This document shows positions 430 to 1,605 of a stretch of DNA of 23,100 bases, in pieces. The first letter of the stretch is position 1. Every line of letters starts with the position of its first letter. The notes under the pieces were generated by a model. It worked only from the letters and a program-made list of their open reading frames with translations. It was not told the origin of the DNA and made no database searches. Source of the stretch: a virus (taxonomy: Duplodnaviria > Heunggongvirae > Uroviricota > Caudoviricetes); IMG/VR virus record IMGVR_UViG_2513237361_000003, positions 1 to 23,100 of that record, one strand, 5' to 3'. The translations under genes were made by a program, and so were the position numbers.

Positions 430-705
430 ATGACTAAGCTTTATCACCGCATCTCAACTTTTCTCTCTGGTTGCTGGGCGTTTATCACGTCTATTTCGTT
501 CGCCATCTTTAGTTTCGGTAGCACAGCGTGCTCGCTTAGTCGGGGTCTGTGGCGTGCTATTTCAGCACTAGCGCCGAAATTTTTACCTGAAAAGGCTGTT
601 TGGCGAATTGTAGAGCGAATGTGTAGTGAGAGCGTTCGCGAGAAGATTAACGTATTTGGACGTCATCCTCGAAATACAGGCGCATTGTGCAGTCCGTTAC
701 TGTAG
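430..705 (+). CDS. hypothetical small protein with a hydrophobic N-terminal segment (accessory ORF)
   Basis: AGGAG at 419-423 sits 6 nt before the ATG at 430. Residues about 10-32 are hydrophobic (TFLSGCWAFITSISFAIFSFG). Stop TAG 703-705 is followed immediately by a stem-loop. No family recognised. Confidence 0.45.
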   Translation: MTKLYHRISTFLSGCWAFITSISFAIFSFGSTACSLSRGLWRAISALAPKFLPEKAVWRIVERMCSESVREKINVFGRHPRNTGALCSPLL

Positions 706-742
706 TCATTACAAAGCCCATCTACGGGTGGGCTTGATAATG
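703..742 (+). repeat. copy A of a duplicated post-ORF stem-loop element
   Basis: Stem AAGCCCA (714-720) pairs with TGGGCTT (729-735), loop 8 nt, then GATAATG. About 40 bp are homologous to 1562-1605, with the stem sequence changed but still fully paired. Confidence 0.55.
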
Positions 743-918
743 AAACCGGAATTTATTCTGGGTAACCAGTTACGGCAGTACAGCGATACAACCCAAGCCA
801 GTAAGTGGGGAAATAACACTGGCAGCCACTGAAAGATGAACCTCCTGCCTTATGGCAAAAAAGATTCTTTGTGGTGGCGGACTGATGGAAAGACATCCGC
901 TGAATCGATAACGAACAA

Positions 919-1107
919 GTGGAAGATGTTGCGATGGTTTCCGTAAACAAAGACCAGAAGGAAGGCGTTGAATACATCACTGGTGCTGATGGTGTGAAAA
1001 GGCCAATGGCTTATTACAAAGCGGCTGAAGAGAGGGCAAGAATGGAAAATATCCCTAAATGCGGCTCATTTTTCGACATGCTGAACCTTCAGCAATGGAA
1101 GTTGTGA
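919..1107 (+). CDS. hypothetical small protein (possible start GTG 919 or ATG 934)
   Basis: Open reading frame only. No convincing ribosome-binding site and no recognised family. A GGCGGCC-TTTTT stretch lies downstream. Confidence 0.3.
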   Translation: MEDVAMVSVNKDQKEGVEYITGADGVKRPMAYYKAAEERARMENIPKCGSFFDMLNLQQWKL

Positions 1108-1183
1108 ACAACTAACAGGTCGCTCAGGCGGCCTTTTTATCGCCATCACAAAAACATCTTTAACAACCAACAAGGTCATAATT

Positions 1184-1564
1184 ATGAACGGCCAGCAAAT
1201 CGAAAAAGAAATCGTTGAGAAAGGCAAAACAGCCCCGCGAATCACTCCTCAGCACATCGAAGACGTGATTAAAAGCGAGCATTACTTTACTGCTTATGAT
1301 GGACGTAATGGTGCCATTTCCAGCAACGAATATTGTGGCAGGGAAAAACCAGAAGAAGACGATCGTGATTTATCACCATTGAAGTTGCTCACTTTCTGCG
1401 TACTGGTGCTGAAGAATGGCTTCACCGTCACCGGAGAGAGTGCCTGTGCAAGCCCTGAAAACTTTGATGCAGAAATTGGTCGGAAGATTGCCCGGCAAAA
1501 TGCTGTAAACAAAATCTGGATGCTCGAAGGTTACTTGCTGAAGCAGAAGATAAGCGAACAGTAG
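1184..1564 (+). CDS. conserved phage protein of unknown function, possibly the N4-gp49 / Sf6-gene-66 family
   Basis: 126-aa ORF in the position P22-like phages use for small conserved ORFs between lysis and terminase genes. The family assignment is from memory and not verified. Stop TAG 1562-1564 is followed by the second copy of the stem-loop. Confidence 0.55.
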   Translation: MNGQQIEKEIVEKGKTAPRITPQHIEDVIKSEHYFTAYDGRNGAISSNEYCGREKPEEDDRDLSPLKLLTFCVLVLKNGFTVTGESACASPENFDAEIGRKIARQNAVNKIWMLEGYLLKQKISEQ

Positions 1565-1605
1565 TTATTACAAAAGCCATTCCCTACAGAGTGGCTTTGA
1601 TAATG
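1562..1605 (+). repeat. copy B of the duplicated post-ORF stem-loop element
   Basis: Stem AAAGCCA (1573-1579) pairs with TGGCTTT (1592-1598), loop 12 nt, then GATAATG (1599-1605). Flanks TAGTTATTACAAAAGCC...GATAATG parallel copy A. Confidence 0.55.

Follow-up and report, generated by a model that had tools for sequence, protein, structure and literature searches.

The early RNase III signals of phage T7 (R0.3, R0.5, R1, R1.1, R1.3, R4.7 and R18.5) are proven processing sites, found on the sense strand in the gaps between cistrons, a few nucleotides past a stop codon. A substrate of RNase III is a double helix of some two turns in which the cut is separated from the loop by 11 bp or more, and internal loops restrict the enzyme to a single cut that leaves a protective 3' hairpin (PMC1540722). 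According to PMC3643576, R0.5 and R1.1 are early RNase III sites of T7 and already serve synthetic biology as insulator parts. The published determinants comprise a proximal box, read as G-C, A-U or U-A, A-U and then a position other than G-C, and a distal box of U-A followed by U-G. Here a duplicated hairpin is described from positions 1 to 23,100 of IMG/VR virus record IMGVR_UViG_2513237361_000003; this whole 23.1-kb stretch, termed the window, comes from an Sf6/P22-like prophage of the Lederbergvirus type and represents its late region. The two hairpins belong to a real and widespread family, apparently an undescribed non-coding element, and most likely represent a new member of the class of RNase III processing signals; their second role, that of joints in the mosaic, is documented.

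Both copies were found where an earlier note on this DNA had placed two homologous elements, at the stop codons of open reading frame (ORF) 430-705 and ORF 1184-1564, with the conserved arms ATTACAAA...TTGATAATG starting 2 nt past the TAG stop in each case. That note had described a bare 7-bp stem; on folding, this gave way to a longer two-tier structure with a CA/GA internal loop. Each copy consists of three parts, namely an extendable outer stem CAUUA/UAAUG, a 2x2 internal loop CA/GA and a G+C-rich inner stem of 9-10 bp (Table 1). The outer stem is TCATTA/TAATGA in copy 1 and AGTTATTA/TAATGGCT in copy 2. The folding free energy was -21.8 kcal/mol for copy 1 (z = -5.8; equalled by 0/200 shuffles) and -20.3 kcal/mol for copy 2 (z = -5.3; no shuffle folded equally well), and the minus strand folded less stably, at -17.2 and -14.0 kcal/mol, respectively. 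The lack of a U-tract reported in the note was borne out: no T-run follows either stem, the sequence 3' of the stem being GAUAAUG, and neither copy was called by a terminator scan that does call the hairpin at 1117-1138. A search for the motif beyond the pair, which the note had proposed, returned these two as the only full copies in the window by covariance model and a family of further copies in related phages. The pair was not reported by a generic repeat finder, because the copies differ by indels.

Viral contigs were scanned with the two conserved arms only, giving 132 matches. At least six consecutive pairs closed the spacer in 59 of these, where a handful would be expected by chance, and the inner stems varied widely (AAGCCCA, AAAGCCA, AAGCGUC, AAGCUCACC, AAGGCCACCAG, AAGGGUAUC and AAUGGUC). 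Among 25 distinct instances, 94% of cells were paired and eight pairs had changed on both sides, values reached by 0/500 shuffles; when partners were slid as a control, the paired fraction dropped to 28-49%. Because this set had been pre-selected for pairing at the outer six inner-stem positions, the test was repeated on 80 loci taken by small-terminase homology only. These loci gave 124 covariance-model hits, one or two per locus, every one of them upstream of the terminase gene and on the same strand as it. A site about 380-385 nt upstream of the small terminase gene was occupied in 80/80 loci, copy 2 being its counterpart in the window. Variants of the form ATTG-CA-GAGRCC...GGYCUC-GA-CAAU in this set show changes in the outer stem and at the inner-stem base that are compensated on the partner side, and across its 47 distinct sequences A-U has been replaced by G-C, with compensation, at both of these places. 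The internal-loop bases C, A / G, A were unchanged in 45-47 of the 47.

The earlier note had read compensatory change from the two window copies. Their difference can equally be read as a one-base register shift and is therefore weak evidence of compensation by itself; the family-wide covariation is strong, and pairing is conserved in related phages in both the 25-instance and the 47-sequence set. Wobble pairs in the core were also one-sided, with about 50 cells of U(5')-G(3') and none in the reverse orientation. As such pairs would be A-C mismatches on the other strand, the selected fold lies on the plus strand, which is that of the late transcript. Covariation, one-sided wobbles and strict co-orientation with the flanking genes support a selected structure on the transcribed strand, in agreement with the note's view that the palindrome had not arisen by chance. 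Neither hairpin matched Rfam 15 even at E <= 10, and 16 related loci gave no match at the gathering threshold.

The family model was run unfiltered over the whole T7 genome. Its top four hits, at 3115-3134, 5861-5884, 866-887 and 36828-36854, were the hairpins before genes 1, 1.1, 0.3 and 18.5, respectively, which we take to be sites R1, R1.1, R0.3 and R18.5; the fifth match was the TE terminator. RNase III sites account for 7 of the 42 comparably stable T7 hairpins, which puts the chance of four out of four at about 3e-4. In the reverse direction, a model built from the seven T7 sites only placed its four best window hits all at the two copies, out of 11 comparable hairpins, with copy 1 hit at 714-741, and its best match in P22 was the P22 copy of the element. 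Likeness to the T7 sites therefore goes beyond that of any stable hairpin, with individual E-values that are marginal. The T7-site model scored two intergenic spacers in the early-left operon of Sf6 as well, with 18.5 bits at 24781-24819 and 11.8 bits at 24993-25044, both on the minus strand, which is the transcribed one there; these are possible further RNase III-type sites.

The sequences of the upper helix can be set side by side (comparison loci carry L-numbers, L205 being P22, NC_002371, and L204 Sf6). T7 R0.3 reads AAGGGUAUC-GCAA-GGUGCCCUU and locus L022 AAGGGUAUC-UCCG-GGUGCCCUU; T7 R1 reads CAGGUCAUCUGCGGGUGGCCUG and L096 AAGCUCAUCUGCGGGUGGGCUU; T7 R1.1 reads AAGGUCAUUC-GCAA-GAGUGGCCUU and copy 2 of the window AAAGCCAUUC-CCUACA-GAGUGGCUUU. 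Copy 1 is of the R0.3/R1 type, with a 9-bp inner stem and a 4-nt loop, and copy 2 of the R1.1 type (CAUUC...GAGUG with the U-G wobble). The published proximal box was found in copy 1 as G-C, A-U, A-U, A.G and in copy 2 with A-U at position 1. Across the 47 distinct sequences, position 2, which is 715/734 in copy 1 and 1574/1597 in copy 2, was A-U in every one, position 3 was A-U in 39 and G-C in 8, and position 1 was G-C in 33. The distal box, read from the loop, was C-G, U-A, U-G in copy 2, as in T7 R1.1, and C-G, U-G in copy 1, as in R0.3 and R1; the U-G wobble was present in 44 of the 47.

A small RNA of P22 ends in the element. In a 2026 survey of small RNAs from P22-infected Salmonella, ten phage loci accounted for 99.8% of phage reads, one of them being P22G (204 nt; NC_002371 40122-40325). 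The end of P22G falls inside the P22 hairpin copy (40304-40353), and its body is homologous to window positions 772-897, within the non-coding segment that directly follows copy 1. Many relatives have a hairpin, about 145 nt of P22G-like sequence and a second hairpin directly after ...GGAAAGACATC. Relatives also carry indels in runs of A6-8 and G4-5 that break the reading frames of this segment, including a 31-codon ORF from 739, so that ORFs 739-832 and 836-946 are probably not genes. In P22 itself, the annotated 'orf25' (40329-40406) overlaps the hairpin, and because its start AUG lies within the hairpin loop it is probably an annotation artefact. The paper on P22 pid describes an antisense moron just downstream of the P22 copy, between orf25 and orf80, and the pid terminator is a different hairpin.

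Other small RNAs were considered as well. A match to Proteo-phage-1 (RF03044) at 756-827 was rejected, as it was below threshold (19.6 bits against a gathering score of 42) and was not reproduced at the gathering score in 16 related loci. The prophage small RNAs PasA-D, STnc100 and AgvB were rejected as counterparts since they are located in another region, between Q and the lysis genes. Gathering-level Rfam matches to STnc100, IsrK and C4 do occur in related contigs (L100 7149-7610, L112 941-1137 and L037 1745-1933), away from the hairpins.

We judge it slightly likelier than an even chance that the hairpins are T7-type RNase III processing and stability signals of the late operon, whose arms also serve as recombination linkers. 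The late transcript would fold immediately after the stop codon of the accessory gene into a lower helix, the CA/GA loop and an upper helix of 9-10 bp. Host RNase III would bind and cut beside the internal loop; by analogy with T7, the cut is predicted some 3 nt past the 3' end of the upper helix, near 738/739 in copy 1 and 1601/1602 in copy 2, next to the invariant 2x2 loop. The upstream RNA would keep a protective 3' hairpin and be uncoupled from the downstream cistrons, and where two hairpins surround a P22G-like segment, cuts at both would release the small RNA. Observed are the structure, its strand specificity, the covariation, the placement after stop codons, the role as a mosaic joint, the likeness to the T7 sites and the small RNA end in the P22 copy; cleavage, its position and any effect on expression are inferred. 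Three lines of evidence support a role in processing and stability: the reciprocal likeness to T7 sites, the published RNase III determinants and, as an indirect experimental hint, the P22 small RNA end. The processing or stability element that the earlier note had listed among its options is supported by these same lines.

Several points weigh against an RNase III signal. The T7 site coordinates are those attributed to Dunn and Studier 1983 and were checked only via the presence of a hairpin and its position before the named gene. Cross-family E-values were marginal (0.002-0.6) and came mainly from the upper stem, and the T7-site model scored the minus strand about equally, because the element is palindromic. 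Plain identity between T7 sites and the family averaged 0.64, slightly above the 0.60 of a reverse-complement control, and was dropped as an argument for likeness. The 2x2 internal loop of the family is symmetric and invariant, unlike the asymmetric loops of T7. The helix of copy 2 comprises 8 + 10 bp plus the 2x2 loop, some 20 positions, and that of copy 1 comprises 6 + 9 bp plus the loop, some 17 positions, which is under the usual two turns or so. The published optimum calls for other pairs than the A-U of copy 2 and the G-C of the P22-type variant at the positions concerned. Some copies stand directly behind a canonical terminator and would hence occur in read-through transcripts only. As defined by reads, the 3' end of P22G is at the apex of the hairpin and falls short of the cut expected from T7 by about 20 nt. 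All the rival explanations set out below explain less of the evidence than an RNase III signal does.

The element was found far beyond the window. BLAST with the 49-nt copy 1 returned 147 phage records, in which it is almost always unannotated, spanning P22-like phages of Salmonella, E. coli and Shigella as well as HK97, HK022, mEp, Stx, Klebsiella and Enterobacter phages. The paper on the epsilon34 genome is silent about it, and among the papers searched none links RNase III with the late regions of P22, Sf6, HK97 or HK022. Its neighbours in HK97 are a small ORF on one side and, on the other, the HNH gene located before the terminase. The models gave no match in lambda, in the DLP12 region of K-12 or in the RNase III region of Qin dicF, so K-12 RNase III cleavage maps could not be used here, and the failure at dicF indicates that the models do not match RNase III sites in general. 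A pattern scan of genome contigs was dominated by chance matches from A+T-rich genomes, with one real member (L305) among the matches listed. In a subgroup from phage contigs that are otherwise unrelated, the flanking genes are a tail-tube gene carrying a Big_2 domain and a DUF6246 gene. Arrays of the hairpin exist as well, as shown by contigs with three or more copies, some of them divergent or decayed (L066 1230-1279 and 1588-1635; L103 5621-5669 and 7962-8011; L117 3470-3519); divergent copies have inner stems GCAGGCAUUC/GAGUGCCUGU and GGAUGCAUU/GAGUGCAUCC, and the internal loop is altered in one copy.

Placement after stop codons was assessed in 34 independent upstream contexts with an ORF, whose proteins fall into more than 20 unrelated clusters. 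The stop lay exactly 2 nt before ATTACA in 12 of them (TAG in 8/12), and an ORF stop was found within 10 nt of the element in 25/34. In the remaining contexts, about a quarter, a canonical terminator stands between the ORF and the element, and the hairpin lies 30-54 nt from the stop codon. This placement bears on the rival that survives best, an RNase III-independent function like that of repetitive extragenic palindromic (REP) sequences, in which the hairpin blocks 3'-5' exonucleases and may stall the terminating ribosome, thereby tuning the upstream gene. The start of the hairpin 2-10 nt past the stop in 25/34 contexts would suit such a role, and published REP effects fit, as ribosomes stall at REPs lying no more than 15 nt from a stop codon, and REPs make the upstream mRNA more stable (PMC12306157, citing Liang 2015 and Newbury 1987). 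The shape, some 35-45 nt long and imperfectly palindromic with a mismatch inside, and the end of P22G within the hairpin are likewise compatible with it. A REP-like role leaves unexplained, however, the specific resemblance to T7 RNase III sites and the invariance of the CA/GA loop and of the A-U pair at proximal-box position 2, and the quarter of contexts in which the hairpin lies behind a terminator does not suit it. REPs are also defined by many chromosomal copies and a RAYT transposase. There are one or two copies per phage and no host-wide dispersal (two in the 23.1 kb, two in Sf6, one in P22, none in lambda and none in the K-12 DLP12 region), and no transposase-like gene was seen near the element among the window ORFs and flanking ORFs examined. 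A REP-like function is accordingly unlikely in our estimate, if the most serious competitor to an RNase III signal.

The element is also a mosaic joint. Sequences next to it fall into 37 upstream and 22 downstream clusters, which occur in 61 combinations around near-identical cores, as in lambdoid boundary or linker sequences, short conserved sequences at the junctions of unrelated modules. Megablast matches of relatives to the copy 1 region break at 701-707. A half-motif consisting of the left arm lies upstream of the Gp49 gene: L044 is colinear with the window up to base 1153 (...TTATCGCCATCACAAAA) and continues in the alignment with the full hairpin, and ATCACAAAA and ATTACAAAA stand on either side of the Gp49 cassette (1154-1575), whose end runs into the rest of copy 2. 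The half-motif thus marks the left edge of this cassette, which is arranged as if it had been inserted via a crossover in the left arm of the element. As an evolutionary fact, then, the linker at a recombination joint that the earlier note had suggested holds, through the diversity of contexts and the half-motif at the cassette edge. Because the element of about 40 nt is near-identical in many phages, it would at the same time provide a short homology patch for cassette exchange.

A stronger proposal is that such a DNA linker is the selected function, with the arms acting as an Erf/Red-type homology patch for cassette swaps and the RNA fold incidental. The number of contexts, the breaks in relatives, the position of the half-motif exactly at the cassette edge and the 'boundary sequences' already annotated at other module joints by the authors of the Sf6 and HK620 genomes all speak for it. 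A homology patch has no need, however, of a hairpin, compensatory changes or one-sided wobbles; recombination does not require strict co-orientation with transcription, and the inner stem, which varies, would be the most useful portion of a patch. As the selected function, a DNA linker is therefore distinctly unlikely.

Translational coupling is very improbable. Here the AUG at the 3' end would be masked by the CAU after the stop until a ribosome, on terminating, opened the stem, so that translation could start again on an ORF or mini-ORF downstream. The stop codon 2 nt before the stem and the AUG in the 3' arm are as expected, and in some loci, among them L077 and L103, the mini-ORF opened by the element's AUG ends at or overlaps the start of the next gene. 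Contexts share no related sequence downstream of the AUG (22 clusters), though, relatives carry frame-breaking indels in the 31-codon ORF from 739 and there is no consistent Shine-Dalgarno sequence; moreover, pairing with CAU explains the conservation of the AUG, variants such as CAAUG pairing with AUUG. Lower still stands a weak intrinsic terminator or insulator of moron transcripts in the lysogen. G+C-rich hairpins at the 3' ends of accessory genes would be in keeping with it, and morons typically bring their own terminator, but the copies have no U-tract and escaped the terminator scan, a canonical terminator already lies immediately upstream of the element in several contexts, and the GAUAAUG after the stem is conserved for pairing with the 5' arm. 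An intrinsic (Rho-independent) terminator was rejected as a candidate, GAUAAUG standing in place of the U-tract. The least credible proposal is a single-stranded DNA hairpin site for a recombinase or transposase (REP/RAYT, IS200/IS605 or integron attC type), for although GTAG often precedes the stem, the conserved arms enclose a variable yet paired centre as in attC sites and the element bounds gene cassettes, the GTAG is an in-frame stop codon and absent in many contexts, each genome holds one or two copies, the element keeps to the transcript strand, and no integrase, HUH or other cognate enzyme gene was seen in the window or the flanking ORFs examined, no systematic search having been made.

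Features of the window and of the Big_2/DUF6246 subgroup are listed in Table 1. Between copy 2 and the start codon of the DUF2560 gene, the leader contains palindromes of the form TTATNCCC-N-GGGATAA, with N = 5-8, at 1608-1627 and 1635-1656. Related versions occur in L024, L112, L100 and L117, where the half-site sequence is kept instead of covarying, and this suggests that DNA is bound there or that the element acts in RNA by its sequence. In four of the variants, a 7-codon mini-ORF is opened by the AUG of the hairpin element and ends in GGAUAA.

Table 1 Hairpin copies, their folds and neighbouring features in the window, with members of the Big_2/DUF6246 subgroup
Feature	Position	Strand	Remarks
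Rz, end of gene	94-393		PF03245
Accessory ORF, 91 aa	430-705	+	No Pfam family; stop codon adjoins copy 1
Hairpin copy 1	703-743	+	TAG stop 703-705; 67.8 bits by family covariance model
Copy 1, outer stem	706-711/738-743
Copy 1, internal loop	712-713/736-737		CA/GA
Copy 1, inner stem	714-722/727-735		9 bp
Copy 1, loop	723-726		UACG
Non-coding segment, P22G homologue	743-897	+	Conserved core 772-897; directly 3' of copy 1
Accessory ORF, 62 aa	919-1107	+	No Pfam family
Canonical terminator-like hairpin with T-run	1117-1138	+	After ORF 919-1107, directly before half-motif; called by terminator scan
Half-motif CCATCACAAAA	1143-1153	+	Left arm only; left junction of Gp49 cassette
Gp49/Sf6 gene 66 family gene	1184-1564	+	PF13876; stop codon adjoins copy 2
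Hairpin copy 2	1562-1608	+	TAG stop 1562-1564; 56.5 bits by family covariance model
Copy 2, outer stem	1563-1570/1601-1608
Copy 2, internal loop	1571-1572/1599-1600		CA/GA
Copy 2, inner stem	1573-1582/1589-1598		10 bp
Copy 2, loop	1583-1588
Conserved leader and DUF2560 gene	1606-1910	+	Gene at 1668-1910; constant right-hand context of copy 2
Small terminase gene	1990-2415		Followed by large terminase and portal gene
Big_2/DUF6246 subgroup	L022 2323-2371; L085 4278-4326; L120 7858-7906; L014 1-39		Inner stems identical to T7 R0.3 or near T7 R18.5/R4.7

How modules are exchanged precisely at lambdoid gene boundaries is an old open question. The hairpin family offers a defined 40-nt element that stands at the joint in dozens of combinations and has a plausible independent reason for conservation, RNA processing, which makes the linker idea directly testable. 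An RNase III signal at these positions predicts that, in the P22-like prophages of Salmonella, E. coli and Shigella, the host enzyme controls accessory (moron-like) genes as well as the phage small RNA that was newly reported. Annotation is affected too, with P22 orf25 and window ORFs 739-832 and 836-946 flagged as probable non-genes. If cleavage does take place, the family would provide compact, natural and sequence-diverse RNase III insulator parts. A broader and more doubtful idea, which we put forward tentatively, is that this is portable RNase III punctuation common to virulent T7-like and temperate lambdoid phages, cutting late transcripts, releasing P22G-type RNAs of about 150-200 nt and linking moron cassettes among P22-like, HK97-like and Stx phages. 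Were it true, one RNA-level constraint would keep a recombination hotspot conserved.

Among known systems, the REP sequences of enterobacteria resemble the hairpin family in being imperfectly palindromic, some 35-45 nt long and located just 3' of ORFs, and both could stabilise the upstream mRNA and affect translation termination within 15 nt of the stop. Unlike REPs, with their hundreds of dispersed copies, the hairpin family is confined to phage late regions at one or two per genome, has another consensus and lacks a RAYT partner. The 'boundary sequences' of lambdoid phages (bsq1-7 in the HK620 and Sf6 annotations) are likewise short conserved sequences exactly at the junctions of exchangeable modules, a concept reportedly going back to the HK620 paper of Clark et al. 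in 2001 and to Casjens et al. in 2004. The hairpin family is absent from those listed in the Sf6 record and, unlike them, has a selected, strand-specific RNA fold. The promoter-early stem-loop (PeSL) cassettes of T4-type phages, reportedly described by Arbiol et al. in 2010, are, like the hairpin family, repeated regulatory stem-loops on either side of variable accessory ORFs, to which a part in the shuffling of modules is ascribed. PeSLs include an early promoter and belong to lytic T4-type genomes, whereas no promoter-like site was found here. DicF, a small RNA of the Qin prophage dicBF transcript, is cut out of a polycistronic RNA through RNase III/RNase E processing, and the RNase III step stabilises the upstream part. 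It thus parallels the present proposal as a prophage small RNA carved from polycistronic mRNA, but has no similarity to the family in sequence or structure, the dicF region being matched by neither model.

The T7 early RNase III signals differ from the hairpin family in their hosts, Autographiviridae as opposed to temperate lambdoid or P22-like phages, in their flanks (ACUC/UAUGAU against CAUUA/UAAUG in the family) and in their longer lower helix. They are proven sites, whereas cleavage of the hairpin family is a prediction, and the family also marks mosaic joints. Both are intercistronic and lie on the sense strand a few nucleotides after a stop, and both are built of a lower helix, an internal loop, an upper helix of 9-10 bp and a loop of 3-6 nt. 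The upper helix is near-identical in the two, including the U-G wobble, and its base reads A-U, A-U, G-C in both.

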